DNA from: Escherichia phage SF
DNA length: 64,000 nt
Sequence record: MH359124
Strand: one strand, 5' to 3'
Shown: one piece after another, positions 1,940 to 63,937 of the stretch
Position numbering within the stretch: position 1 is the stretch's first letter
How the letters are laid out: every line of letters begins with the position of its first letter
Made by a program: the position numbers and the translations under genes
Notes under the pieces: generated by a model
What the model was told of the DNA's origin: nothing
What the model saw: the letters and a program-made list of their open reading frames with translations, nothing else
Database searches by the model: none

Positions 1940-2925
1940 TGAAAACAATTATGAAAGGCTACTTTGGTAGCCACCTTTATGGAACGTCTACTCCTGAATC
2001 TGACGTCGATTTTAAAGAAATTTATGTCCCTCATGCTCGTGATATCTTGACCGGTAACGTTAAAGAACACATGAGCAAGAACACGAATAACACATCTTCT
2101 AAGAACACAAAAGACGACGTGGACCACGAGTTGTATAGTCTCAAATATTTCTTTAAACTAGCTATGGATGGTGAAACTGTCGCATTAGATATGCTTCACA
2201 CTCCGCAAAGTCTAGTAGTTAAATCTGATTTGCCTGACATGTGGAAGTATATTCAAGACAACAGGTCTCGTTTCTATACCACTAACATGAAATCTTATTT
2301 AGGGTATGTCCGTAAGCAAGCTTCTAAATACGGTGTCAAGGGTTCTCGACTGGCTATTCTTCGTCAAGCCCTTAAACGTTCTAATGAATGGGGTCAATAC
2401 TTTGATAATGGTGCAGTAATTCGTTTATCACATATGAAGAATGTTCTGCCCGTAGGTGAATTTGCTTCGTGGGTTGAAACCGAAAACGAGAAAACAGGTA
2501 AGCAAACGTTCTATAATCTGTTAGACCGTAAATTCCAAGACACATTAACCAATAAAGAGTTCAATGCCATCCTGGTTAAACTGGAAGAGAACTATGGCGA
2601 ACGTGCTCGTAAGGCAGAAGCTAACGAAGGTATTGACTGGAAAGCATTGAGTCATGCATGTCGTGGTGGACTTCAACTATTAGAAATTTATAAAACCGGC
2701 GACCTGGTTTACCCACTTCGGGATGCTCCATTTATTCTAGATGTTAAGCTTGGTAAACATACGTTTAAAACTGTACAAGAATTCCTAGAAGATATCGTTG
2801 ACCAAGTTGAACAAGCATCAGAACAAGCTGCCAAGAACGGTATGCAACAAAAAGTAGATATGAGTTTCTGGGATGATTTCCTTGAGCAAGTCTACTTAGA
2901 AAACCACAATTCGTACTATAAATGA
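1936..2925 (+). CDS. Predicted nucleotidyltransferase-fold protein (GS-x9-DxD motif)
   Basis: N-terminal GSHLYGTSTPESDVD resembles the Pol-beta-type NTase signature; rest unassigned. Confidence 0.45.
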   Translation: MMKTIMKGYFGSHLYGTSTPESDVDFKEIYVPHARDILTGNVKEHMSKNTNNTSSKNTKDDVDHELYSLKYFFKLAMDGETVALDMLHTPQSLVVKSDLPDMWKYIQDNRSRFYTTNMKSYLGYVRKQASKYGVKGSRLAILRQALKRSNEWGQYFDNGAVIRLSHMKNVLPVGEFASWVETENEKTGKQTFYNLLDRKFQDTLTNKEFNAILVKLEENYGERARKAEANEGIDWKALSHACRGGLQLLEIYKTGDLVYPLRDAPFILDVKLGKHTFKTVQEFLEDIVDQVEQASEQAAKNGMQQKVDMSFWDDFLEQVYLENHNSYYK

Positions 2926-2926
2926 T

Positions 2927-2947
2927 AAGGGCCTTCGGGCCCTTTAG
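2927..2947 (+). terminator. UUCG-tetraloop hairpin (GGGCC-TTCG-GGCCC), terminator or RNA stability element
   Basis: Seen in sequence. Confidence 0.5.
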
Positions 2948-3031
2948 GGGGTCAAAATATTTTTAAAAAGTAGTGTACATGCTTTTAGGATATGTTATTA
3001 TAGACATATCAAAACAAGAGGAGAAAACAAA

Positions 3032-3250
3032 ATGAAAACCAAAATGTTAGAAATGATTCGTGAAGCTGGTGATAAAGGTCTTATGGTTAACACTCGTGAT
3101 GCAGACCAACGTCAAGCATTCGGTGAACTGAAATCCAAAGGTCTGGTTAAAGCATCCTTGGGAATCGGTAATGCATTACGAGTCACTTTGACTCCTGCTG
3201 GTAAAGCAGTGTTCTTTCAACCTCTTACCAAAAAATCTCGTCGCAAATAA
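3032..3250 (+). CDS. Hypothetical protein (72 aa)
   Basis: ORF with GAGGAG SD. Confidence 0.5.
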   Translation: MKTKMLEMIREAGDKGLMVNTRDADQRQAFGELKSKGLVKASLGIGNALRVTLTPAGKAVFFQPLTKKSRRK

Positions 3251-3252
3251 TT

Positions 3253-3284
3253 GTTTACTTTTGCTTTAAACGTGTTATTATAGA
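3253..3284 (+). promoter_or_regulatory. T4-type early promoter (GTTTAC -35, TATTATAG -10)
   Basis: Consensus-like motifs; member of repeated ...tattatagacctatc... cassette family. Confidence 0.55.
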
Positions 3285-3320
3285 CCTATCGAAACGAAAT
3301 GAGTAAATTTGGAGAATAAA

Positions 3321-4301
3321 ATGTTCAACGTTCAAATCAAAAAAGGTATCTATCGTAATAACGAAATCTCTGGTTCTTATGTTGCCACAAAGACCTGGTT
3401 CCCGGCAAAGCTTAATCCTGAATGTTCCCACTTAGGTGATGGTAAAATTTTCGTTATGATTGATGGTTCTGAACGTGGAGTATGGGTCTTCAAATCAGAC
3501 ATCGTAATGGAAGGAGCTGAGACATCACCAGTTGCAGTTGTTGAAAGCACTGAAGATATGAAAACTCGTATCAACAAACGCTTTAAAGTAATGAGCATGA
3601 TGACGAATGGCATTATCGATGGCAAAATTCGTTCACTCATTATTTCAGGTGCAGCTGGTATTGGTAAGACGTATTCTCTGGATAAAGCACTTAATAATGC
3701 TAATGATAACGGTTTCATCAAATACAAAAGCATTAATGGTAAAATCTCTGGTATTGGCCTTTACGAACAACTTTGGCTCAACCGTGATGCAGACAGCGTT
3801 CTCTTAATCGACGACGTTGATGTATTCTCGGATATGGACATCTTGAACCTTCTTAAAGCAGCATTAGATACCGGTGATAAACGCAAAGTTTGTTGGAGCA
3901 CTGCGTCATCTTATCTCGATGATAAGGGTATTGATAAAGAATTTGAGTTTGAAGGTACTATCGTTTTCATTACAAACGTTGATATCGATAAAGAGTTAGA
4001 ACGCGGTTCGAAACTTGCTCCGCACCTTCAAGCTTTAGTATCTCGTTCAGTGTATCTCGACCTTGGAGTACACTCTAATGAAGAGATTATGGTTCGAGTT
4101 GAAGATGTAATATTATCTACTGACATGATGCAGAAACGTGGTCTGACGGATGCAGAAACGTATAAAGCATTGTCCTGGATGAAGGCTAACGTATCTCGTC
4201 TTCGCAATGTATCATTACGTACGGCTCTTTATGTAGCAGATTTTATTTCAACTGATAAAGACGGTTGGGAGGAAATCTCTGAAGTTACACTTCTGAAATA
4301 A
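3321..4301 (+). CDS. Predicted P-loop NTPase (Walker A GAAGIGKT, Walker B LLIDDVD)
   Basis: Motifs in translation; ATG at 3321 with GGAG SD. Confidence 0.5.
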   Translation: MFNVQIKKGIYRNNEISGSYVATKTWFPAKLNPECSHLGDGKIFVMIDGSERGVWVFKSDIVMEGAETSPVAVVESTEDMKTRINKRFKVMSMMTNGIIDGKIRSLIISGAAGIGKTYSLDKALNNANDNGFIKYKSINGKISGIGLYEQLWLNRDADSVLLIDDVDVFSDMDILNLLKAALDTGDKRKVCWSTASSYLDDKGIDKEFEFEGTIVFITNVDIDKELERGSKLAPHLQALVSRSVYLDLGVHSNEEIMVRVEDVILSTDMMQKRGLTDAETYKALSWMKANVSRLRNVSLRTALYVADFISTDKDGWEEISEVTLLK

Positions 4302-10062: not shown

Positions 10063-10491
10063 TTGATATGGAGTATGGTTATGAATATTTCTGAAACTCG
10101 CGGTAAATGGTTCAAGATCGTTAAAGAAGATGAAGAACTACAAGTCAAGTTTCCTGAATTAAAGAAAGGAACAATCATCAAGGTAATTGGTATTTCAACA
10201 ACGGCTGACCTGGCGAGCGGCATCGTTGAAGTGATGCTGTCTACCGGCGAGAAACTTTGCATCCACGACCGTGATATTGGTTTTTGGTGTTTCTGGGAAT
10301 CCAATTCAATAGATGAACTCGAAGAAATTGACCAAGTAGTTTGTGGCAGTGAACTTGGTGAATTCGAAGGGGAACGTATTTCTTATGCTTTAGCTAAATT
10401 AGCCGCACAAGAAAATAATGACGGCTATGAAGGTAATCTGATGCAAGCCGCAGCTGAATACATTGAATATTTAGAAAGACGTTTAAGTTAA
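10063..10491 (+). CDS. Hypothetical protein
   Basis: ORF; start ambiguous (ATG at 10063, 10075, 10081). Confidence 0.45.
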   Translation: MIWSMVMNISETRGKWFKIVKEDEELQVKFPELKKGTIIKVIGISTTADLASGIVEVMLSTGEKLCIHDRDIGFWCFWESNSIDELEEIDQVVCGSELGEFEGERISYALAKLAAQENNDGYEGNLMQAAAEYIEYLERRLS

Positions 10492-16842: not shown

Positions 16843-16880
16843 GTGCTTTAAGATAGGTCTCTAAATATTATGATATAATA
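16843..16880 (+). promoter_or_regulatory. Promoter region upstream of gene 55 (MotA-box-like TGCTTTA plus TATTAT/TATAAT -10 elements)
   Basis: Motifs read directly. Confidence 0.4.
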
Positions 16881-16908: not shown

Positions 16909-17466
16909 ATGACTGAACAAAAACCTAAAAATAACTATGTGAATAATAAAGAGCTTCTCGCCGCTATAATCGAGTGGAAAAAGGAGCTCTTAAATAATAA
17001 AGACCCAAACAAAATTATTCGTCAGAATGATACCATCGGTTTAGCAATTATGCTTATCGCCGAAGGCCTATCCAAACGTTTCAACTTTTCAGGATATACC
17101 CAATCTTGGAAGCAGGAGATGATTGCAGATGGGATTGAAGCCTCTATTAAGGGACTTCATAATTTCGACGAAACCAAGTACAATAACCCACATGCATACA
17201 TAACTCGAGCTTGTTTTAATGCTTTTGTCCAACGTATCAAAAAAGAACGTAAGGAAGTTGCAAAGAAATATAGTTACTTCGTTCATAACGTCTACGACAG
17301 TCATGACGATGATATGGTAGCGTTGGTAGATGAAACGTTTATTCAAGACATCTACGATAAAATGACGCATTATGAAGAATCCGCTTATAAAGCTCCTGGG
17401 GCTGAAAAGAAGGAAGTTGTTAGCGATTCGCCTAGTTTGGATTTTTTATATGAGGATGACAATTGA
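16909..17466 (+). CDS. 55: Late-transcription sigma factor gp55
   Basis: 185 aa, near-identical to T4 gp55 as I recall it. Confidence 0.93.
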
Positions 17467-17665
17467 CATCTCTAACTACTTAGAAGAACCTTTTGACGAA
17501 GCAATCCCTTATTTGGTAAAACTGTTGGGTCGTGAATTTAAAATTAATTTTGACATCGACCCTTTGAACCCACATGACGTGTCATTTTCGATAAATGGGA
17601 CTCCGGTTGAGTATGAGTTCTGTATTGAAGAGGATGGACGTTTTTATTTTAATTTAATGAGATAA
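17450..17665 (+). CDS. Hypothetical protein (start uncertain)
   Basis: ORF overlapping 3' end of gene 55. Confidence 0.35.
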
Positions 17666-17666
17666 T

Positions 17667-17990
17667 ATGACTACCGAGATTATTGAAAATAAAGAAGCGG
17701 AAGATGCAGTAGCTAAAATGCTACAAGAAATCCAAAAGAAAAATGAAGCTGAAGCACGTAAAAAATCCGAAAAGATTCTTAAAAAGAATCGTTTTGAACT
17801 AAACCGTCTTTATGCTCATGCTCAAGAAGCAGCAATTCAAAACAACTTCGAAGCTTATGAATATGCTATTAAGAAATCTCGGGATATTCTACGACAACCA
17901 TATAATGACAAGTTAATTAAAATCCAGTGGGTTACTACTCGTCAGGCTATTGAGGACATCATTAATGGCGCTAGTTCAAACAAAGTTTAA
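17667..17990 (+). CDS. Hypothetical protein
   Basis: ORF. Confidence 0.45.
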   Translation: MTTEIIENKEAEDAVAKMLQEIQKKNEAEARKKSEKILKKNRFELNRLYAHAQEAAIQNNFEAYEYAIKKSRDILRQPYNDKLIKIQWVTTRQAIEDIINGASSNKV

Positions 17991-18171
17991 ACGTCTTAAT
18001 CTGAACGCAGGATTCACCCTTAAATTGGGAGGTCCTCTTTGTGTTAAAATTTCCGAAAAGGAATATCACGACGGTTCTATTACAGAAATTTGTCCGCCTA
18101 TTGTAAAGGCAGACCCAAAACAACTCGTGTGGGTTGATTCATTTCAAGTTAAGAAATGGTGGAAACGATGA
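17965..18171 (+). CDS. Hypothetical protein
   Basis: ORF. Confidence 0.4.
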   Translation: MALVQTKFKRLNLNAGFTLKLGGPLCVKISEKEYHDGSITEICPPIVKADPKQLVWVDSFQVKKWWKR

Positions 18172-18210
18172 GAGAAATCGATTTAGGTATTTTCTGAGAG
18201 GTGATTATGC

Positions 18211-18384
18211 ATGACGAACGACCCGACCTCTGAAAATTTCGATAAAATCCGTAAAGGCAAAGCAGAAAGAATGAGACGTTTTAAAGAGTCTTATGATAAA
18301 GCTAAAGCCGAAGGAACTATTACATACAAGCCCATTCGATTTAAAAGTTCAAATGAGCCTCTGTACGGTGTACTATGTGGATAG
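18211..18384 (+). CDS. Hypothetical small protein (57 aa), followed directly by terminator
   Basis: Hand-translated MTNDPTSENFDKIRKGKAERMRRFKE... Confidence 0.35.
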   Translation: MTNDPTSENFDKIRKGKAERMRRFKESYDKAKAEGTITYKPIRFKSSNEPLYGVLCG

Positions 18385-18410
18385 GAACTCTTCGGAGTTC
18401 CTTTTTTTTT
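18383..18410 (+). terminator. UUCG-tetraloop terminator (GGAACTC-TTCG-GAGTTCC followed by T9)
   Basis: Seen in sequence. Confidence 0.7.
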
Positions 18411-18433
18411 GCTTTATAAACGGATGATAGAAT
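18410..18433 (+). promoter_or_regulatory. MotA-dependent middle promoter (TGCTTTA box, 12 nt, TAGAAT) for gene 47
   Basis: Same box/-10 arrangement recurs upstream of 39 and 56. Confidence 0.55.
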
Positions 18434-18456
18434 GAATTAACTAATGAGGAAATAAT

Positions 18457-19476
18457 ATGAAAATTTTGCACTTAGGCGACTTCCATATCGGAGTCAAACA
18501 AGACGACCCATGGGTTCAAGATATTCAACGTGATGGTATTCGTCAAGCAATTGAATACTCTAAGAAACACGGGATTAAAACTTGGATTCAATACGGTGAC
18601 TGGTTTGACGTCCGTAAAGCAATAACACATCGTACAATGGAATTCAATCGTGAAATCGTTGATATGATTTCTAAAGCAGGCATTCACGTTCATGTCACGA
18701 TAGGAAACCATGACATGGCGTTTAAGAATACAATAACACCTAACACTGTTTCCGAATTGTTAACTCAATTTGAAAACTTTACTATTTACGAGCATCCAAC
18801 TACTGTAGATTTTGACGGATGTCTGATTGATATCGTTCCATGGATGTGTGAAGAAAATACAGGTGAAATCTTAGAGCACATCAAGACTTCTTCCGCAGCG
18901 TATTGTGTTGGGCACTGGGAACTGAATGGCTTTTATTTCTATAAAGGAATGAAGTCTCATGGGCTTGAACCTGATTTCTTAAAGACTTATAAACAAGTCT
19001 GGTCCGGCCACTTCCACACAATCTCTGAAGCTGCTAACGTCAAATATATTGGGACACCATGGACCCTTACTGCAGGTGATGAGAACGACCCGCGCGGATT
19101 CTGGGTATTTGACACTGATGTTGAACGTATGGAATTTATTCCTAATGAAACAACATGGCATCGACGAATCACTTATCCGTTTAAAGGCAAAATCAATTAT
19201 TCTGATTATACTAATATAGCCTTACGTGTTATAGTATCAGAAATTGATTCAGAGTTGACTAAGTTTGAATCTGAACTTGAAAAAGTAGTTCACTCTCTTC
19301 GTATGGTTTCTAAAGTTGATAACAGTGTTGAATCTGATGACGACCAGGAAATCGAGATTAAATCACTTCAAGATATCATTAAAGAATATATTGACGCGAT
19401 TCCAGATATCTCAGACGAAGACAGAGAAGTGCTGGTCAAATATTCCAACGAACTTTATATTGAGGCAACACAATGA
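18457..19476 (+). CDS. 47: Recombination endonuclease subunit gp47 (Mre11-like)
   Basis: 339 aa, phosphoesterase motifs GDFH...GDWFD...GNHD. Confidence 0.92.
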   Translation: MKILHLGDFHIGVKQDDPWVQDIQRDGIRQAIEYSKKHGIKTWIQYGDWFDVRKAITHRTMEFNREIVDMISKAGIHVHVTIGNHDMAFKNTITPNTVSELLTQFENFTIYEHPTTVDFDGCLIDIVPWMCEENTGEILEHIKTSSAAYCVGHWELNGFYFYKGMKSHGLEPDFLKTYKQVWSGHFHTISEAANVKYIGTPWTLTAGDENDPRGFWVFDTDVERMEFIPNETTWHRRITYPFKGKINYSDYTNIALRVIVSEIDSELTKFESELEKVVHSLRMVSKVDNSVESDDDQEIEIKSLQDIIKEYIDAIPDISDEDREVLVKYSNELYIEATQ

Positions 19477-27849: not shown

Positions 27850-28485
27850 ATGAAAACTACTCCTATTACTATCGCTATTGACGCAATCATAAAACAAGCT
27901 TCTTCTTTGGCCGCTATGGCCAAAGTAATTAGTCAAAACCCTGCTCGTTATAATGCTATTTTAGAAACTCTTCGACGCCCGGGACTTAGTAATTATGAAA
28001 GCCGAGTAATTATTACAGGTGTTGGTAAGAACGCTAATATCGCAACTAAAGCTTCTGAGACTTTTGCTTCACTCGGTATACCGAGTATGTACTTGAACAC
28101 TGGGCATTATTCTCACGGTGATGCAGGATTCATTGCGCCTAATGATGTGTTGATTCATATTAGTCGTTCTGGTAAAACTGAAGAAATGATAGGTGTGGCT
28201 AAGCATCTTAAAATGATTCGTCCGAACGTCAAACAGATTCTGTTGCATTGTAACCCAGACATTCCGCAAGAAAATGAAGCCCTTTTTGATTACTCTTTCT
28301 GTACAGGCATCGCTGTAGAAGTTGACGAGAACTCTTTAGCTCCGACTATGTCCACTACATTGTTGTTAGCGCTTATCGATACGTTTGCTATCAACCTTTC
28401 GTCTGAACGTGGATTTACCTCTAATGACTTCCTTAAGTTCCACCCTGGTGGTGCACTAGGTGCCATGTTACGAGGCGAACAATGA
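27850..28485 (+). CDS. SIS-domain sugar-phosphate isomerase, arabinose-5-phosphate isomerase (KdsD/GutQ) type, no CBS domains
   Basis: ITGVGKN, HGDAG, ISRSGKTEE, APTMSTT, FHPGGALG match the KdsD-type SIS signature. Confidence 0.8.
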   Translation: MKTTPITIAIDAIIKQASSLAAMAKVISQNPARYNAILETLRRPGLSNYESRVIITGVGKNANIATKASETFASLGIPSMYLNTGHYSHGDAGFIAPNDVLIHISRSGKTEEMIGVAKHLKMIRPNVKQILLHCNPDIPQENEALFDYSFCTGIAVEVDENSLAPTMSTTLLLALIDTFAINLSSERGFTSNDFLKFHPGGALGAMLRGEQ

Positions 28486-28666: not shown

Positions 28667-30352
28667 ATGAAAAAAGCTGTTATTCTTGGTGCTGGACTGG
28701 CAACTCGTTTGTATCCAATAACGCATCATATTCCTAAGGTGCTTGTTAACTATAAACAAGACACTATTCTGAGCAATTTGTATACAATCTATTCTGACCT
28801 TGGCGCAGATGAAATTATTGTAGTAGTTCATTCAAAATTTGCTGAAACCGTTCGAGCTTATTGTGAGCAAGAAGGGTTCAATGTGACTATTCGTACAGTT
28901 GATGAAGCGTATGGTTCTGCTTATGCTCTTGCTAAATTACACAAAGATTTAGACGGCCATAATGTAATTGTTAACTGGTGTGATATTATTCCCGATTTTG
29001 GTTCATGGTCTTGGAATGTTAACGCAATCTATGTTAAGGGTGACGAATGTCGATATAATTTCGACGGTGAAAATATCACTAACGTAGGTTCAACAGGTGG
29101 TAATGTTGTAGGAATTTATCAGTTCAAAGACTGGGAATTCTATATGGGTTCTACTGATGAGGAAATTCATGAATACTGCAAAGGACGCGATTTCGTAGAA
29201 TTCCTTTACGGCAGTGCATTCAATAAATCAGAGCTTATGAATCTAATTGATTTAGGTGATATGCCTAAACTTGAAAAAGCTCATGAAGTTCGTGAACTTA
29301 ATCGTAGTTTTAATGCAGTTGAAATTGGTGAAGAAACTGTAACTAAATTCGCATTAACCGAACAGGGTCGAGCTCTTCAGAAAGATGAGATTTCGTGGTA
29401 TCTTAAAGTGAAATCAGATTCAGTTCCTCAGTTAGTTTCTGTTAATGAAAATAACTTTGAAATGGAACGCATTAAAGGTAAGCCGGCATTTGAATATATT
29501 AAATCCAAATCAAGTCTTGCTCGACCACAAATTGTTGATGCAATCTTAGATGCACTGAAATTCAGCACAGACACTTATTTTGTAAGTCCTGAAACTGTTC
29601 GTCGTGATTTCACTAAAGAATTCTATACTAAAGTTATTGATCGTTGCGAAAGTATTCAACCATTGATTGATTCATTTGGTAAAATCACACATGTGAACTA
29701 CACTAAGATCGGACGTCTGAAGCCAATGTTGAAACAAGCTTTAGAACACCTTATTCGTTATCATAACCGTTCTCAGGGACAGTACTCTGTTATTCATGGC
29801 GACCCGAACTTCAGTAATACTATGATTACTGATAATGGTGAAGTCAAGTTTATCGACCCTCGTGGATATTTTGGCGAAACCAAGATTTACGGACCAAAAT
29901 TGTATGATGAAGCTAAAGTGCTTTACGCCGTTTCAGGTTATGATGAATTCAACGCTAATCCGACCTGGGGGCAGTTTACTATTGATGAAACAACTTGTAA
30001 TGTGACTATTAACATCAATCCATTAGTTTACAAATATGGAAAGATGAGTTCGTTTAACGAGTATCATCATTTGGCAGTGGCAATTATCTGGATTGCATTA
30101 GGTGGTTATTTCAAGAATAATCCACTTAAAGCGGTAGCCGCATATTATAAAGGTATGGAACTTCTGACTAAGCAATTACGTAACATGGGCCGTGTACTTC
30201 AGGACGGCTCTATTAGTTACGACGTAGCAGAACCTGTAACGGCTACTCTGATTACAAAAAATCCTGGTAAATGGGTACTAACTGATAAAGAAACTGGTGT
30301 TTCTTATCGTCCAATCGGTGGCGATATCACTCATCAATGGGAACGAATCTAA
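28667..30352 (+). CDS. Bifunctional sugar-1-phosphate nucleotidyltransferase (N-terminal) / APH-type sugar kinase (C-terminal)
   Basis: N-terminus ILGAGLATRL (NTP-transferase G-x-G-x-R loop); C-terminus IHGDPNFSN...FIDPRG (APH/ChoK catalytic loop and metal-binding D). Confidence 0.75.
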   Translation: MKKAVILGAGLATRLYPITHHIPKVLVNYKQDTILSNLYTIYSDLGADEIIVVVHSKFAETVRAYCEQEGFNVTIRTVDEAYGSAYALAKLHKDLDGHNVIVNWCDIIPDFGSWSWNVNAIYVKGDECRYNFDGENITNVGSTGGNVVGIYQFKDWEFYMGSTDEEIHEYCKGRDFVEFLYGSAFNKSELMNLIDLGDMPKLEKAHEVRELNRSFNAVEIGEETVTKFALTEQGRALQKDEISWYLKVKSDSVPQLVSVNENNFEMERIKGKPAFEYIKSKSSLARPQIVDAILDALKFSTDTYFVSPETVRRDFTKEFYTKVIDRCESIQPLIDSFGKITHVNYTKIGRLKPMLKQALEHLIRYHNRSQGQYSVIHGDPNFSNTMITDNGEVKFIDPRGYFGETKIYGPKLYDEAKVLYAVSGYDEFNANPTWGQFTIDETTCNVTININPLVYKYGKMSSFNEYHHLAVAIIWIALGGYFKNNPLKAVAAYYKGMELLTKQLRNMGRVLQDGSISYDVAEPVTATLITKNPGKWVLTDKETGVSYRPIGGDITHQWERI

Positions 30353-30738
30353 TGCACCGTGTAGAAAACATGCTTAATCTTTGTTTTGATGTCGATGATT
30401 GTATAACAGAGTGGAATAACAATCGTGATTACGTGAACTTCAAACCAGACGTCGAAATGGTGTCTGCCATTAATGCCCTGTATGATGCAGGGCATACCAT
30501 AACGCTTTACACTGCTCGCGGTATGAAGTCAGTCGGTCCTGGTCGTATAGCAATTGACATTCTCCCAAGTCTGATTCAGAACTTGTCAAACATTGGATTG
30601 AAGTACCATAATTTGCTAACACATAAACCAGTATATGATTGGATTATCGACGACAAAGCTATGCGTCCTGACGAATTCAAAGCTCTTATGAATAAAGGCG
30701 AATTCGAAACATTTAAATCATATAAACCGAATCTATAA
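30352..30738 (+). CDS. HAD-superfamily phosphatase (KdsC-like motif DVDDCIT)
   Basis: DxD nucleophile motif near N-terminus, DDK motif near C-terminus; TAATG coupling to upstream gene. Confidence 0.6.
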   Translation: MHRVENMLNLCFDVDDCITEWNNNRDYVNFKPDVEMVSAINALYDAGHTITLYTARGMKSVGPGRIAIDILPSLIQNLSNIGLKYHNLLTHKPVYDWIIDDKAMRPDEFKALMNKGEFETFKSYKPNL

Positions 30739-30798: not shown

Positions 30799-31959
30799 AT
30801 GAATACTTTTAAAATCGGAACGAATTTTGATTTAGCTCTTCTTGATAAAATCGTAGAGCTCAATAAAACTTATCCTAATAGCTTGATAAACGAAGTATAC
30901 GGCTCTACAAGAGAAATGGCTTTTGTAGCAGCCAGACCTGATTTTAGGCTTCCTGACGTTGACAAAAAGATGTTAGAAGATTACGTTAAACGTTGTAACG
31001 AATTGGGTATTTGCTTTAACTATACACTCAACACGATAAATCCTGGTTCAAAAAGAGAACTAGTTGAGTGGAAGAAGAAAGCTATTCAGGATTATGTTCA
31101 GTATCTTTGGTCAATAGGTGTATGGCGTATTACTATCGCTAACCCTGTTGTTATGGAAATTGTTCGTGAAGTCAATAAAGACATTGAGATTGAAGTTTCA
31201 ACAATTCTACATGTCGATGCTGTAACTCAAATCAAATACTTGCATGACCAATATAATATCAAAAAGGTCTGCTGTGGAATTCATAAGAACCGTTCAGTTT
31301 CTTTCCTGAAGCGTGCAGCAGAGTTTTGTAATAAGAACAATATAATATTTGAAGTTCTCGTAAATGAATTCTGCTCTAATGCTGGTAAAGGGTATACAAC
31401 ACATTGTAGCTATCGTGACTCTTGCTATATTTTCCATAGCACCGATGTTACAGTAGATGATGCCAAATCCTTAAATGGATATCCAATGCAACACTGTATT
31501 AAAGCTCGTGATACAGATCCATTTAACTGGTTGAGAACTCGTTTTGTTCGTCCTCAAGATTTGAAACTTTATAATGATATTGGTATCACTCAATTTAAAG
31601 TTTCGGGACGTACAGGTAGCACAGACTACATTTTGAAAGTTCTTGAAGCTTATGCTTCTGAAAAGTTTGAAGGTAATTTGTTAGAACTGTGGAAGCCTTT
31701 AGAGACCATTTTCACTCTTGAAAATGAGACCGAGTTTTCACATACGGTAAATATTGAAACCTCTTTGTTAGATGGCTTTTTAGAAAAAAGGTGGTTCAAA
31801 CATCCGGATTTCGATTGTGCTAATGAAATCTGCGGGACGACGTGTACATATTGTGAAAGATATTATAAACGTCAGTTATCTAAAAATGGGTTATCAGAAA
31901 ACTCTATATCTATTATTGATATAACTAACTCTGATGACGCTTTGAGGTACCCAGAATGA
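30799..31959 (+). CDS. Cys-rich protein, possible peptidase-U32-family / Fe-S enzyme
   Basis: YTLNTI, EIEVSTILH, EVLVNEFCS...HCSYRDSC resemble U32 blocks; C-terminal CGTTCTYC (CX3CX2C). Confidence 0.4.
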   Translation: MNTFKIGTNFDLALLDKIVELNKTYPNSLINEVYGSTREMAFVAARPDFRLPDVDKKMLEDYVKRCNELGICFNYTLNTINPGSKRELVEWKKKAIQDYVQYLWSIGVWRITIANPVVMEIVREVNKDIEIEVSTILHVDAVTQIKYLHDQYNIKKVCCGIHKNRSVSFLKRAAEFCNKNNIIFEVLVNEFCSNAGKGYTTHCSYRDSCYIFHSTDVTVDDAKSLNGYPMQHCIKARDTDPFNWLRTRFVRPQDLKLYNDIGITQFKVSGRTGSTDYILKVLEAYASEKFEGNLLELWKPLETIFTLENETEFSHTVNIETSLLDGFLEKRWFKHPDFDCANEICGTTCTYCERYYKRQLSKNGLSENSISIIDITNSDDALRYPE

Positions 31960-32237: not shown

Positions 32238-32954
32238 ATGGGAAAACATAACACAATGAAATATATTAAAGCCGCAGATTTTCAATCCGCATTTAAAGCT
32301 GTCAATCGTGAAATTTTAGAAAATCCACAGTTCGTTACTGATTCTCGTATTGGACGTTGTAATGAAATTGGGTCTATGACAGTAGTTGTTGATACCCCTT
32401 CATCATTCAAAATGACCGACCCACGTATTAATCGCATCTCTTATGAATATGCTGAAGATTTCTGGAAATTTATGATTTCTGGTGGTACTGATGCAGAAGA
32501 AGCATTTAAGGCATATCCTAATGTCGCTAAATTTATTTCTAAACCAAAATCAGATGCTTTGCCTACGAACTTCAACACTTTCTATGGTCCTCGCATTGCG
32601 GCCCAGTTACCAGCTCTTCTCAAAGAACTTAAAGAGAAACCTAATTCACGAAGAGTTGTGTTCCAAATTCTAGAAAGTTCAGATCAGGCTTTGCTTGATT
32701 CAGACGAAACACTTGAATATCCATGTACTGACTCAGTGACTTATTATATTCGTGATGGTAAGCTTTATACCCACTGTCATATGCGTTCTCAGAACTGTGC
32801 TGTTGTTATGCAGTTGGATTTTTATCTCCAAGGAAAATTACTTCATTATATCGCTAACGAATGTGGTGTAGAAGTTGGTGATTATACTCATACCATGGTA
32901 AGTGCCCATGTGTTTGAACGTGATTTTGATTATGTTAAAGGATTCCTTGACTAA
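32238..32954 (+). CDS. 42: dCMP hydroxymethylase (thymidylate-synthase fold), divergent from T4 gp42
   Basis: NSRR, PCTDS (nucleophile Cys), YIRD, HMRSQN...QLDFY align with T4 dCH catalytic blocks; syntenic between 43 and uvsX. Confidence 0.7.
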   Translation: MGKHNTMKYIKAADFQSAFKAVNREILENPQFVTDSRIGRCNEIGSMTVVVDTPSSFKMTDPRINRISYEYAEDFWKFMISGGTDAEEAFKAYPNVAKFISKPKSDALPTNFNTFYGPRIAAQLPALLKELKEKPNSRRVVFQILESSDQALLDSDETLEYPCTDSVTYYIRDGKLYTHCHMRSQNCAVVMQLDFYLQGKLLHYIANECGVEVGDYTHTMVSAHVFERDFDYVKGFLD

Positions 32955-33853
32955 TGGCTATTTTCCGCGTACCTATCTTGAGTATGCGGTCTTATGAAAC
33001 TGGACAGTATGCTATCCTTAAGGATGGCAACTTCCAACTTCATTTGCACCGTGCTAATCCAGGTGATGTGATTACATATCCACGTAATGCATCTGATATT
33101 AAAGAATGTGAACGTCTTTTCCCGGAATTTAAGTTTGTTCCATTATGGTATAAAGATAACGCATATAACACTCGTAAATATTTCTGGTCTGAAAATGAAT
33201 TTGTGGTTGATTCATTAATTGATTATTATGATTGTGATTTTCTAATCACAGATATCACTGGATATGACGGCACTTTTGACGTAGAATTCAATTTCAATAT
33301 CACTGCGGACCCTAATAAACCACGTTTTTATATTGACGAATTCTTAAAAACCGACATGTTGTCTGTTAATCGTTCACTTCAAACTACTGTGTTGAATGAA
33401 CGTCAAAAAGAAGTGCTGGTTAACGCAGGTGCAGATGGTAATAAGATTATCGTAACCCGGAAAGTTATACGTCCTTCCATCATGCAGCGTCTTGTAGGTG
33501 ATTTGGCTCCTATTCATCTAGATGGTATTTTTCATCCATTTCGAATTAGTGACCCGTGTTATCGTTTTGAACAAGTGGTTGAATGTGCAATTCAATTAGG
33601 TCAACCGCTTTATATAACCGATCCAAATAATAGCTTCGACAGAAATAAGTATCCTGAAGAAGCGCTGATTCGAATTTTTAATCCAACTAAAACTGAGTAC
33701 TATCAAATTCTTAAAGGACGGCCGAAGATTCAATATTTCGAAAATCCTGAAGAAGTATTCCATCCAGGTCTTGGCGAGTTCATCTACTTTAACGCTTTAA
33801 TTTCTTCACCGTATAATATACCTAAATATGAAGATGTCGTAATCGAGGAATAA
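32954..33853 (+). CDS. Hypothetical protein (299 aa) at the position of T4 beta-gt
   Basis: ORF; no motif recognised. Confidence 0.5.
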   Translation: MAIFRVPILSMRSYETGQYAILKDGNFQLHLHRANPGDVITYPRNASDIKECERLFPEFKFVPLWYKDNAYNTRKYFWSENEFVVDSLIDYYDCDFLITDITGYDGTFDVEFNFNITADPNKPRFYIDEFLKTDMLSVNRSLQTTVLNERQKEVLVNAGADGNKIIVTRKVIRPSIMQRLVGDLAPIHLDGIFHPFRISDPCYRFEQVVECAIQLGQPLYITDPNNSFDRNKYPEEALIRIFNPTKTEYYQILKGRPKIQYFENPEEVFHPGLGEFIYFNALISSPYNIPKYEDVVIEE

Positions 33854-33854
33854 A

Positions 33855-34403
33855 ATGGCTAAAATTATTTTAGTAGATGGCCCGGATAATGCTGGTAAAA
33901 CAACTTTCATTAATGACATAATGGAAATTAGTGAAAGATATGTAAAGATTGATTTCCCTAAACGAACAGTTGATGGACGTTTCGACGTTAAGTCTCGAAA
34001 TGAAGTTGGCTGTTTCGAAACGATGTTGAATTATTTAGACCCTACTAAGATTTATCTGTTAGACCGTGGATATATTAGTAACTGGGTTTATGGACGTATT
34101 CGACAAGATGCGGACTCGGTTCTTGACGTTTATGAACAGGATTATGTTCGTCTTTGCCAAAACCACGATGTGTTCACAATTATTTTAACACGTAACGAAA
34201 TGACTGAAAGTTTTGAAGACGACCTTATTACTTTGTCTTCATTCGGTTTTAATACAGTAATTTCATATTTTGAAGAGTTTGCAATCCATAACGAAATCCA
34301 AACGTATCAATTACTTAATCATGATGGTGCTAACAAAGTTATAGGATTTAATGCAAGCGAACGTAATAATTTGATTACAGAAATCATCAAATGGGCTCGT
34401 TAA
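33855..34403 (+). CDS. P-loop nucleotide kinase, thymidylate/dNMP-kinase-like
   Basis: Walker A GPDNAGKTT and DRGY motif resembling the TMPK DRY motif. Confidence 0.55.
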   Translation: MAKIILVDGPDNAGKTTFINDIMEISERYVKIDFPKRTVDGRFDVKSRNEVGCFETMLNYLDPTKIYLLDRGYISNWVYGRIRQDADSVLDVYEQDYVRLCQNHDVFTIILTRNEMTESFEDDLITLSSFGFNTVISYFEEFAIHNEIQTYQLLNHDGANKVIGFNASERNNLITEIIKWAR

Positions 34404-38298: not shown

Positions 38299-38483
38299 GC
38301 AAATTAACTAAAGTTACTTTTATCGGTTGGTTTAAAAGCGGCGAGATGTTCACTAAAGATATCATGTTATCAGGTGATCGCGAAGAAATCGAGTGGGTTG
38401 CGGTACAACTTGCCGAAGTGAACAACGCATTAGTTAAAGCATTTGTTAATGACGAGAAAGTTTTCGAAGCAGATTTTCGATAA
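38295..38483 (+). CDS. dmd: Dmd (61.5), antitoxin against host RnlA/LsoA-type toxins
   Basis: MSKLTKVTFIGWFKSGEMFTKDIML...ALVKAFVNDEKVFEADFR matches T4 Dmd. Confidence 0.85.
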   Translation: MSKLTKVTFIGWFKSGEMFTKDIMLSGDREEIEWVAVQLAEVNNALVKAFVNDEKVFEADFR

Positions 38484-38554
38484 TTTTAAAATAACCGTTT
38501 ACAAGCACCACATACTGTGTTACTATCTTTCTATCAACTACAGAGGAAATTGAA

Positions 38555-38923
38555 ATGAAAAAATTAATCGCTTTAGCAATGGTATTTGGATTAACCGGAT
38601 GTGGTGCCCATGGCTTTATCCCTAATAACGTTGGCCAACTGATTTACAATCCGAATGTTAAACAGTATGAACAACCTAAAGTTGAAGTGGAAGACCCGGT
38701 TACTGTAGGTAATCGAATGATTCAAGCTGATGCTCATGCTCAACGTTATCGTGATTCTGATACTGTGGCTGTGTCAAAAGAACAACGCGTTAAAGAACAT
38801 TGCTTACAGGCTACTGAAATCGCATTCATTCGCTATGTTGAAACAACTGGTAAAGAGCCTACCCAGAAACAAATCGCAAATAACTACGTCCAGTGTATTG
38901 AACGTTTAAACAAATTTAATTAA
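38555..38923 (+). CDS. Putative lipoprotein (lipobox LTGC)
   Basis: Signal peptide MKKLIALAMVFGLTGCG. Confidence 0.55.
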   Translation: MKKLIALAMVFGLTGCGAHGFIPNNVGQLIYNPNVKQYEQPKVEVEDPVTVGNRMIQADAHAQRYRDSDTVAVSKEQRVKEHCLQATEIAFIRYVETTGKEPTQKQIANNYVQCIERLNKFN

Positions 38924-52089: not shown

Positions 52090-52515
52090 ATGGCTTTTAA
52101 AGGTTTTGAAGTTGGTAAGAAATATCGTATTATCAAAGGACAGGAAGATAATTTCTTGAGAATTCTTAATACGACTGGTAAACGTCTTAATACTAATCTG
52201 CATACTACTTTATTGTCCAAAGATTTTATTGTGGAAGAGATGATTGGTTACGGCGTTTCGGTTATTGCCGTAGAAGCCGTAGGCGATTATGGCCGAACTA
52301 TTCATAGTATGCAAGGTGATATTCTGCTTTATGGTGCAGAATTTAAATTCTTTGAAGAAGTTCCGGAACCAGATACATCTGTCGATTTCAAAAAAGGCTC
52401 TGTAGAATTTGTTGACGGTTCGGTGATCGTATCAGGTGATGTGGTCATTACAGTTAAAAGTGAACAAGGGCGTTTGGCTGCAATTGATGCACTTCAGAAA
52501 ATTAAATTTAAATAA
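52090..52515 (+). CDS. Hypothetical protein
   Basis: ORF. Confidence 0.5.
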   Translation: MAFKGFEVGKKYRIIKGQEDNFLRILNTTGKRLNTNLHTTLLSKDFIVEEMIGYGVSVIAVEAVGDYGRTIHSMQGDILLYGAEFKFFEEVPEPDTSVDFKKGSVEFVDGSVIVSGDVVITVKSEQGRLAAIDALQKIKFK

Positions 52516-52532
52516 GGGCTTCGGCCCTTTTT
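52516..52532 (+). terminator. UUCG-tetraloop terminator (GGGC-TTCG-GCCC followed by T5)
   Basis: Seen in sequence. Confidence 0.65.
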
Positions 52533-52556
52533 GCTTTAGATTTCGGATGATAGAAT
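52531..52556 (+). promoter_or_regulatory. MotA-box middle promoter (TGCTTTA, 12 nt, TAGAAT) for gene 39
   Basis: Near-identical to the gene 47 promoter at 18410-18433. Confidence 0.55.
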
Positions 52557-63304: not shown

Positions 63305-63937
63305 ATGTCTAAAGTTACTTACATCATCAAAGCTTCTGAAAACGCTCTGAATGAAAAAACTGCTGCAATAATGGTTTATGTCATTAAGAACAACTTCACC
63401 ACGGCTGCCAATGTCCGTGAAGCTCTGGAAGCGGAATACAATGCATCGGTTGTTAACTCTAACATTGGTGTATTGATTAAGAAAGGTTTAGTCGAAAAAT
63501 CCGGTGATGGACTTGTAGCAACAGGCGAAGCAATGGATATTATCCAAAAAGCTGCAGACCTCTTTGCCCAAGAAAATGCTCCAGAACTTCTTCAGAAACG
63601 TAACACTAGAAAAGCACGTGGAGTTACTCCTGAAATGCACGAATTAGCGAACTTTGTTTTTGAAAATATTAAAGATAAAGTTGAAGTTAAAGAAATTGGT
63701 GAAAACCGTAGTAACTTGGAAGTTCGATTTGCAAAACGAGTTCTAGGTATTCGTCAGATCGAAATTCGTCGAAATGGTTCTCTTAGAATCTTTGCATACA
63801 ACATGTCAGAAACTGAATCAAAGCTGTTTACTTCTCTTGAAAATGATGTTAAGATTAAGATCGGTGGTAAATATACATACATTGACTTCCCTAATGTGTC
63901 CAAAGAAATCATTACCCTTGTAACTAACGTACTGTGA
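63305..63937 (+). CDS. motA: Middle-transcription activator MotA
   Basis: MSKVTYIIKAS...SNIGVLIKKGLVEKSGDGL matches T4 MotA. Confidence 0.9.
   Translation: MSKVTYIIKASENALNEKTAAIMVYVIKNNFTTAANVREALEAEYNASVVNSNIGVLIKKGLVEKSGDGLVATGEAMDIIQKAADLFAQENAPELLQKRNTRKARGVTPEMHELANFVFENIKDKVEVKEIGENRSNLEVRFAKRVLGIRQIEIRRNGSLRIFAYNMSETESKLFTSLENDVKIKIGGKYTYIDFPNVSKEIITLVTNVL

Follow-up and report, generated by a model that had tools for sequence, protein, structure and literature searches.

The interval between genes 55 and 47 of Escherichia phage SF corresponds to that of RB69-type T-even phages, with an empty a-gt slot

Introduction

In bacteriophage T4, the alpha-glucosyltransferase gene a-gt is located between genes 47 and 55, and the full order is 55, a-gt.5, a-gt.4, a-gt.3, a-gt.2, mobB, a-gt, 47.1, and 47. 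RB69 is annotated at the same place with 55, a-gt.5, a-gt.4, a-gt.3, a-gt.2, and 47 and nothing else between them, and the names a-gt.2 to a-gt.5 are already in use there. Thomas et al. (2018, PMC6024577) reported that RB69 has no homologues of a-gt, of the beta-glucosyltransferase gene b-gt or of ba-gt, and that its DNA has arabinose and no glucose. Here we analyse the interval from gene 55 to gene 47 in a 64-kb stretch of Escherichia phage SF (MH359124), which is called the window throughout. A sequence-only reading of this window had noted that a-gt is missing from the interval and had taken this, together with the missing b-gt, as support for the replacement of glucosylation by a different modification.

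The lack of a-gt, b-gt, and ba-gt in RB69-type phages has been known since at least 2018, and the replacement pathway was worked out in the years 2018–2026. A GT-B arabinosyltransferase function was suggested for ORF003c by Thomas et al. (PMC6024577). Lee et al. (2026, PMC13326640) described the RB69 DNA base as mono- and di-arabosylated 5-hydroxycytosine and showed that gp48 makes 5-hydroxy-dCMP; the same paper proposes gp46:47 as the first and gp3 as the second transferase, with gp55, gp52:53, and gp51 making UDP-arabinofuranose. As cited in PMC13326640, biochemistry and crystal structures were presented for phage HY126 (He et al. 2026), and Bas46/Bas47 were studied by Mahler et al. (2025). 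In the DNA of Mosigvirus NP, 5-ara-dC and 5-ara-ara-dC occur at 1:4 (Durham collection paper, PMC13390438).

The second group of described systems with which this locus may be compared is that of the PeSL cassettes. For the topology of two cassettes in one phage and one in a relative, excision by cassette recombination was shown in RB49/phi1 (Arbiol 2010, PMC2839356), and a middle-promoter variant, PmSL, was described for the Vibrio phage nt-1 only (Comeau 2014, PMC4122927). Neither of these two papers mentions a-gt.

Results

The window contains, with a probability which we estimate at about 0.92, the normal 55–47 interval of an RB69-type T-even phage with the a-gt slot empty, in a lineage that uses arabinose-5-hydroxycytosine and neither hydroxymethylcytosine nor glucose. 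Between genes 55 and 47 we found only the homologues of a-gt.5, a-gt.4, a-gt.3, and a-gt.2, which are the four plus-strand open reading frames (ORFs) of about 57–107 amino acids (aa) noticed by the sequence-only reading (Table 1). T4 mobB, a-gt, and 47.1 had no significant match in the window (best tblastn E = 0.35, 0.087, and 0.31, respectively), and the 72 nt which separate a-gt.2 (ending at 18384) from gene 47 (starting at 18457) are regulatory sequence with no gene. The T4 gene order given above agrees with what that reading had said of T4, and its statement that a-gt is absent from this interval is correct.

The phage is placed in the genus Mosigvirus (RB69 group), the window being 98–99% identical to HY126, APCEc01, and RB69. 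A 2.6-kb query across the 55–47 locus matched 145 phage genomes over most of its length, and its best DNA matches, all from Mosigvirus, were HY126 (99.0%) and APCEc01 and PhAPEC2 (98.8–98.9%). The DNA identity of RB69 (NC_004928) to the window is 96.5–97.4% over the part of RB69 compared and 98.3% in the 55–47 interval, where the range for RB69, APCEc01, and HY126 is 98.3–99.0%. In 124 deposited phage genomes, at least 80% of the 55–47 junction without a-gt is covered, in each case at one matching place.

A whole-genome search for a-gt or b-gt homologues, which the sequence-only reading had named as a check, was run on the window and on the complete genome of APCEc01 (168,771 bp, reassembled from five pieces). 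The latter aligns with nearly the entire window, mostly at 95–98% identity, and served as the whole-genome proxy. No homologue was found in either sequence. T4 a-gt, b-gt, mobB, and 47.1 and RB14 ba-gt gave nothing in the window or in full APCEc01 (best tblastn E = 0.036); a three-genus a-gt profile (built from T4, T2, and a Jiaodavirus) and phmmer, with filters off, gave E > 1 throughout the 2,132 stop-to-stop ORFs of both sequences; and for b-gt (PF09198) and ba-gt (TAGT, PF20691) the E values were at least 0.3 everywhere in tblastn and phmmer. As positive controls, the a-gt, b-gt, and ba-gt queries strongly matched Pfam AGT, T4-Gluco-transf, and TAGT, with 862 bits for T4 a-gt on PF11440 (AGT).

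Two weak tblastn matches to a-gt were rejected as chance: window 3447–3686 (E = 0.087) lies within a 330-aa P-loop NTPase-like ORF, and APCEc01 113835–114014 (E = 0.036) lies within a 200-aa ORF without a Pfam match. The 330-aa ORF itself (window 3309–4301) belongs to a variable nrdC.x-like region and shows faint similarity to AAA_22, AAA_16, nSTAND3, and HTH_37, all under the Pfam cut-offs. Among the matches listed for T4 a-gt, homologues fall into three identity bands, which are indicative: at least 90% in Tequatrovirus-type coliphages and their relatives, about 66% in Klebsiella/Raoultella phages, and a few below 60%, including that of Erwinia phage Cronus.

The claim that b-gt is missing was also borne out, with no similarity in the window or APCEc01 and a 299-aa GT-B protein at the b-gt position. 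The window has eight modification genes, seven of them between the DNA polymerase gene and uvsX and the eighth between gene 39 and rIIA.1, and all eight products are 97–100% identical in amino acids to RB69 gp55, gp52:53, gp51, gp50, gp48, gp46:47, gp45, and gp3. By sequence, they include a 5-hydroxy-dCMP synthase, two GT-B arabinosyltransferases, and the UDP-arabinose supply genes (isomerase, kinase/pyrophosphorylase, and phosphatase). The synthase homologue matches near-identical PDB chains from HY126 (9iqc, 9ir2, and 9iqu, E = 2e-162) and is only 24.8% identical to T4 gp42 in tblastn, as against 61% for the adjacent polymerase and 68% for UvsX; hence it is another enzyme at the same position. 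The bifunctional enzyme matches Pfam NTP_transferase and, weakly, kinases. A structure predicted here for the 299-aa transferase has the GT-B fold. For the 366-aa transferase, Foldseek placed PDB 9ir0 and 9iqz (“phage HY126 glycosyltransferase”, with and without UDP) at the top with 99% identity, and the next matches were GT-B enzymes, PimA among them; its AlphaFold model has a pLDDT of 62.6 with a poor N-terminal half, the sequence search having given 5 clusters. Neither Pfam nor PHROGs provided a function for these two transferases or for the four small ORFs.

The two glucosyltransferase positions differ in their present content. The b-gt gene is replaced in place, since the GT-B transferase and the small kinase (32954–34403) fill the place of T4 b-gt and segA, flanked by the gene-42 homologue and uvsX; the a-gt slot, by contrast, is simply empty. 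In addition, the genes of the 299-aa and 561-aa proteins are intact single ORFs in the window, while the RB69 reference splits each of them (p046/p047 and p052/p053), which speaks for the published explanation of the RB69 splits as sequencing errors. The arabinose cluster has a wide distribution, with occurrences in T4-like phages that infect Acinetobacter, Yersinia, Edwardsiella, Serratia, and Pseudomonas.

Table 1. Features of the 55–47 interval, the MotA gene, and the modification genes in the window
Feature	Position	Strand	Evidence
Gene 55, late sigma factor	16909-17466	+	90.7% aa identity to T4 gp55 (tblastn), 99.5% to RB69 gp55
a-gt.5 homologue, 71 aa	17450-17665	+	46.6% to T4 a-gt.5; Pfam DUF5491; phrog_1169
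a-gt.4 homologue, 107 aa	17667-17990	+	57.7% to T4; 100% to RB69; Pfam DUF2654, E = 1e-27
a-gt.3 homologue, 68 aa	17965-18171	+	69.2% to T4 a-gt.3; phrog_1648
a-gt.2 homologue, 57 aa	18211-18384	+	75.9% to T4 a-gt.2; Pfam DUF5486, E = 4.5e-28
Intrinsic-terminator-like hairpin, 8-bp stem, UUCG loop, then T-run	18383-18410	+	terminator scan, fold energy
Predicted MotA-type middle promoter: TGCTTTA (18410-18416), 11 nt, TG-extended -10 TAGAAT (18428-18433)	18410-18433	+	
Gene 47, SbcD-like recombination nuclease subunit	18457-19476	+	74.9% to T4 gp47; 99.1% to RB69 gp47; Pfam Metallophos
Arabinose-5-phosphate isomerase (RB69 gp55 homologue), first of cluster	27850-28485	+	100% to RB69p055; Pfam SIS; role per PMC13326640
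Bifunctional sugar kinase/UDP-arabinose pyrophosphorylase (RB69 gp52:53, HY126 AfhE), 561 aa	28667-30352	+	99.5-99.7% to RB69p053/p052; role per PMC13326640
HAD-like sugar phosphatase (RB69 gp51, HY126 AfhF)	30352-30738	+	98.4% to RB69p051; role per PMC13326640
Peptidase U32-like protein (RB69 gp50), pathway role uncertain	30799-31959	+	99% to RB69p050; Pfam Peptidase_U32
5-hydroxy-dCMP synthase, thymidylate-synthase homologue in the place of T4 gene 42	32238-32954	+	98.7% to RB69 gp48; Pfam Thymidylat_synt
Putative first arabinosyltransferase (RB69 gp46:47), 299 aa	32954-33853	+	adjoins the synthase, at the T4 b-gt position
Small nucleotide kinase (RB69 gp45)	33855-34403	+	98.9% to RB69p045; role predicted in PMC13326640
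Second arabinosyltransferase (RB69 ORF003c/gp3), 366 aa	54439-55539	+	between gene 39 and rIIA.1; 99.2% to RB69p003
motA, activator for MotA-box promoters	63305-63937	+	Pfam MotA_activ, E = 5e-39; MotCF

The four small ORFs all belong to PHROG families and three of the four to Pfam DUFs (a-gt.3 has no Pfam match), all of these being families of unknown function, and a full-text search returned no paper on a-gt.2 to a-gt.5. Their names come from the T4 neighbour alone and imply no role in glucosylation, because the genes are kept whatever the modification chemistry. The a-gt.5 homologue is 100% identical to RB69 a-gt.5 over 69 aligned aa, from 17456, and its first 17 nt lie within the end of gene 55, as is also the case in T4. 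Since a-gt.5 and a-gt.4 abut or overlap the gene preceding them, they are probably co-transcribed with gene 55. Gene 47 has its own Shine–Dalgarno sequence, GAGG, at 18446–18449. Minus-strand ORFs in the interval and a minus-strand terminator-like site at 18114–18092, inside a-gt.3, were unsupported and were taken as chance.

The sequence-only reading had further proposed a strong terminator at the end of the small ORFs and a MotA-type promoter before gene 47, and both predictions agree with our scans. The hairpin AGGAACTC-TTCG-GAGTTCCT at 18383–18402 is GC-rich and directly followed by a run of 8–9 T, as would be expected for an intrinsic terminator; it is predicted to fold with -12 kcal/mol (z = -2.7 versus shuffles), and the stop codon of a-gt.2 falls inside the 5' arm of its stem. 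With the consensus used for the MotA box, (a/t)(a/t)(a/t)TGCTTtA followed after 11–13 nt by a -10 TAnnnT, the putative promoter reads TTTTGCTTTA, 11 nt, and TAGAAT at 18407–18433. MotA is encoded within the window, where the MotA-box pattern occurs 15 times versus 3.5 expected (about fourfold enrichment), and APCEc01 has an annotated asiA-like anti-sigma gene at a place not covered by the window. We infer from these features that the hairpin and the promoter are active in this phage. The hairpin with its U-run would end or attenuate the upstream transcripts or stabilise their 3' ends, and the adjacent MotA box with the extended -10 would let transcription of genes 47 and 46, which encode the recombination nuclease, restart in the middle period.

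This composite element was present in all Tevenvirinae sampled: a GC-rich hairpin with a TTCG or TTAG loop and a few T, then (T/A)GCTTT(A/C), 11–13 nt usually ending in TGn, and TAnAAT. At this position, the hairpin-promoter arrangement occurs in five genera. The junctions were compared by anchored extraction on the MotA box, MAFFT having misaligned the three short junction sequences. Among seven non-identical hairpins, taken from T4, the Jiaodavirus, CC31, and the Dhakavirus and including that upstream of gene 39, pairing is maintained by compensatory changes: 7 of the 8 pairs change on both sides and 94.6% of cells are paired, a result reached by 0 of 500 shuffles. Rfam gave no match anywhere in the window.

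The T-run between the hairpin and the MotA box (18403–18411) is variable in length, with 9 T in the window, 7 in DCP548, and 6 in RB69, which alters the U-tract of the terminator and not the spacing of the promoter. A second hairpin-MotA module lies upstream of gene 39 at 52505–52556 (AAGGGC-TTCG-GCCCTT, TGCTTTA, 12 nt, TAGAAT) and has CGGATGATAGAAT in common with the module of gene 47. Upstream of gene 55, at 16844–16879, a TGCTTTA box and a strong extended -10 (TGATATAAT) are 23 nt apart, which exceeds the standard spacing of MotA promoters; a TATTAT is present there at 15 nt.

The content of the 55–47 slot varies among the genera. In T2 and a Jiaodavirus, the slot is occupied by a-gt, mobB being absent. 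The four small ORFs and no a-gt were found in DCP548 (a divergent Mosigvirus), Dhakavirus E33, and Karamvirus CC31, and the interval of Krischvirus FL38 has two small ORFs only, again without a-gt. In Dhakavirus IME540 (2397–3014 of the fetched piece), a 205-aa ORF with a weak GIY-YIG match lies between a-gt.2 and 47. This ORF, together with mobB in T4, suggests that the a-gt.2/47 junction may be a landing site for homing endonuclease genes. T4, T2, and the Jiaodavirus have two hairpin-promoter modules, one on each side of a-gt, while one module, at the same place, is present in the five genomes that lack it (the window, RB69, DCP548, CC31, and Dhakavirus E33). Between T4 and the Jiaodavirus, the a-gt proteins are 66% and the gp47 proteins 70% identical.

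The T2 record AP018813 (1389–3324 of the fetched piece) labels a-gt as “N-acetylmuramoyl-L-alanine amidase” and gives the names tail completion protein, head assembly cochaperone, and prohead protease to the homologues of a-gt.4, a-gt.3, and a-gt.2. All of these labels are plainly wrong, and one of the errors seems to have spread to the name of the PHROG family matched by a-gt.2.

Some differences between the window and its relatives lie far from the interval. Window 2923–3273 has no counterpart in APCEc01, and window 10071–10491 is 86% identical to it, as compared with 95–98% elsewhere; both look like local replacements in a variable early region. The homologue of gene 61.4 (RB69 p038, also present in APCEc01), located between dmd and imm.1, is gone at window 38480–38555, leaving a gap of about 203 bp; a query with RB69 p038 had no match within the window, and dmd and imm.1 are intact.

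Discussion

The presented data support the view that a-gt and b-gt are missing because the DNA is modified in another way: this phage group attaches arabinose to 5-hydroxycytosine, in place of glucose attached to hydroxymethylcytosine, which accounts for the lack of T4's a-gt. As judged from the RB69/HY126 literature, the thymidylate-synthase homologue would make 5-hydroxy-dCMP, which would then be incorporated at replication. UDP-arabinose would come from ribulose-5-phosphate via the isomerase, the bifunctional kinase/pyrophosphorylase, and the phosphatase, and the two GT-B transferases would add one and then a second arabinose. The DNA chemistry of phage SF itself is probably the same, as its genes and its relatives suggest.

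The sequence-only reading was thus right when it concluded that another modification replaces glucosylation. The RB69-type arabinose genes (97–100% identity) speak for this conclusion, but the empty slot alone, on which it had leaned together with b-gt, is weak evidence and not diagnostic of lost glucosylation, because CC31 has an equally empty slot and is nevertheless reported to have b-gt and ba-gt homologues (PMC6024577), and the Dhakavirus and Krischvirus slots are also without a-gt. What carries weight is the content of the b-gt position and the presence of the arabinose cluster. The base which that reading had implied, hydroxymethylcytosine, proved to be wrong, as this group makes 5-hydroxycytosine via a thymidylate-synthase homologue about 25% identical to T4 gp42 (PMC13326640).

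Could the phage still glucosylate its DNA via a relocated or highly diverged a-gt or b-gt? We consider this very improbable: no homologue is present in the window or in complete APCEc01, and the weak match at 3447–3686 sits in a P-loop NTPase-like ORF and not in a transferase. Moreover, the transferases that are present are 97–99% identical to those of RB69 and HY126, for which arabinosylated 5-hydroxycytosine and no glucose are reported (PMC6024577, PMC13326640). An assembly or sequencing artefact would have to be repeated in the 124 independent phage records which cover the same junction as a single place, some of them annotating a terminator there, and it is hardly conceivable as the cause of the absence. 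Several points nevertheless weigh against the arabinose reading of the interval. It covers only 64 kb of the phage, and the remaining genome is judged from a relative, APCEc01, which is 95–98% identical; the DNA chemistry and the transcripts of this isolate are read from sequence and from relatives. The z-score of the hairpin is modest, and the sequences used for covariation were picked as hairpins, which biases the result toward pairing. In addition, in vitro reconstitution of the first arabosyl transfer has yet to be achieved with any phage of this kind (PMC13326640).

How the slot came to be empty is a separate question. A stem-loop with a promoter bordering a variably present gene is the arrangement of the PeSL/PmSL cassettes, and the module at 18383–18433 conforms to it. 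We think that the presence or absence of a-gt probably arose by cassette-mediated excision or insertion, with the direction undecided by the data. Tentatively, and at somewhat less than an even chance, a-gt may be regarded as a self-contained cassette between two module copies, the single module of RB69-type phages being either an empty “docking site” or an excision “scar”. If this is true, modification genes could be swapped between T-even genera via regulatory cassettes, with the expression of the neighbouring recombination genes left undisturbed.

One possible history, to which we give slightly less than even odds, is that the ancestor had a-gt and that Mosigvirus lost it by recombination between the flanking modules, leaving one fused module. 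It agrees with the two modules around a-gt in T4, T2, and the Jiaodavirus versus one in the window, RB69, DCP548, CC31, and E33, and with the excision shown to give the same topology in RB49/phi1 (PMC2839356), middle-promoter cassettes being also described (PMC4122927); the divergence of a-gt between T4 and the Jiaodavirus, similar to that of gp47, is as expected under vertical descent. However, two or three independent losses (in Mosigvirus, Dhakavirus, and Karamvirus) would be needed, and the hybrid look of the window module, in which the left part is like T4's upstream copy and the right part like the downstream one, is not decisive: CGGATGATAGAAT also occurs upstream of gene 39 and may be a promoter consensus. 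The interpretation of the module as a chimera of T4's two modules, or deletion scar, was dropped as proof, since its right-hand part recurs upstream of gene 39 and is like the extended -10 consensus. Alternatively, the lineage perhaps never had a-gt, and the single module is the ancestral unoccupied site into which a cassette was inserted in the ancestors of Tequatrovirus and Jiaodavirus, for example via a mini-circle; this, too, we hold to be plausible at a little below an even chance. The slot is empty in four of the six genera sampled, mobile genes share it (mobB in T4, the GIY-YIG-like ORF in Dhakavirus IME540), only phages which make hydroxymethylcytosine have a use for a-gt, and the widespread arabinose cluster may be old. 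Against an insertion stands the occurrence of a-gt in exactly the same slot in two genera which are no closer to each other than to those without a-gt, with a divergence matching that of the flanking genes, which ancient presence explains equally well. The 66% for a-gt beside 70% for gp47 fits ancient presence with several losses, although old transfers are also conceivable.

The 55–47 architecture without a-gt is standard and already published for RB69-type phages. One small addition is made here: a-gt is framed by duplicated regulatory modules, which fits the existing model of gene gain and loss in T4-like phages. The type of sugar on cytosine decides which restriction, CRISPR, and glycosylase defences can attack a phage, as well as whether its DNA can be cut, sequenced, and engineered; recognising an arabinose-type phage from its sequence is therefore practically useful.

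Comparison with the described cassettes gives a likeness and a difference. As in PeSL/PmSL, a stem-loop is directly followed by a promoter and borders a variable gene, with two copies where the gene is present and one where it is absent; the PeSLs described have early sigma-70 promoters, while the module here would be of the middle-promoter type. The T4 locus shares with the window the flanking genes, the four small genes, and the module after a-gt.2, and differs in having a second module after a-gt and three extra genes, mobB, a-gt, and 47.1. CC31 and Dhakavirus E33 resemble the window in the four small ORFs, the one hairpin-promoter module, and the lack of a-gt. As for the arabinosyl-5-hydroxycytosine pathway of RB69, HY126, Bas46/47, and DLP3, no difference was detected, and all the pathway genes are in the window. 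In the interval itself, RB69 and the window show small differences only, for example, in the length of the T-run; RB69, HY126, APCEc01, and PhAPEC2 have an identical gene order and the same module, and the RB69 proteins of the interval are 96.5–100% identical to those of phage SF.

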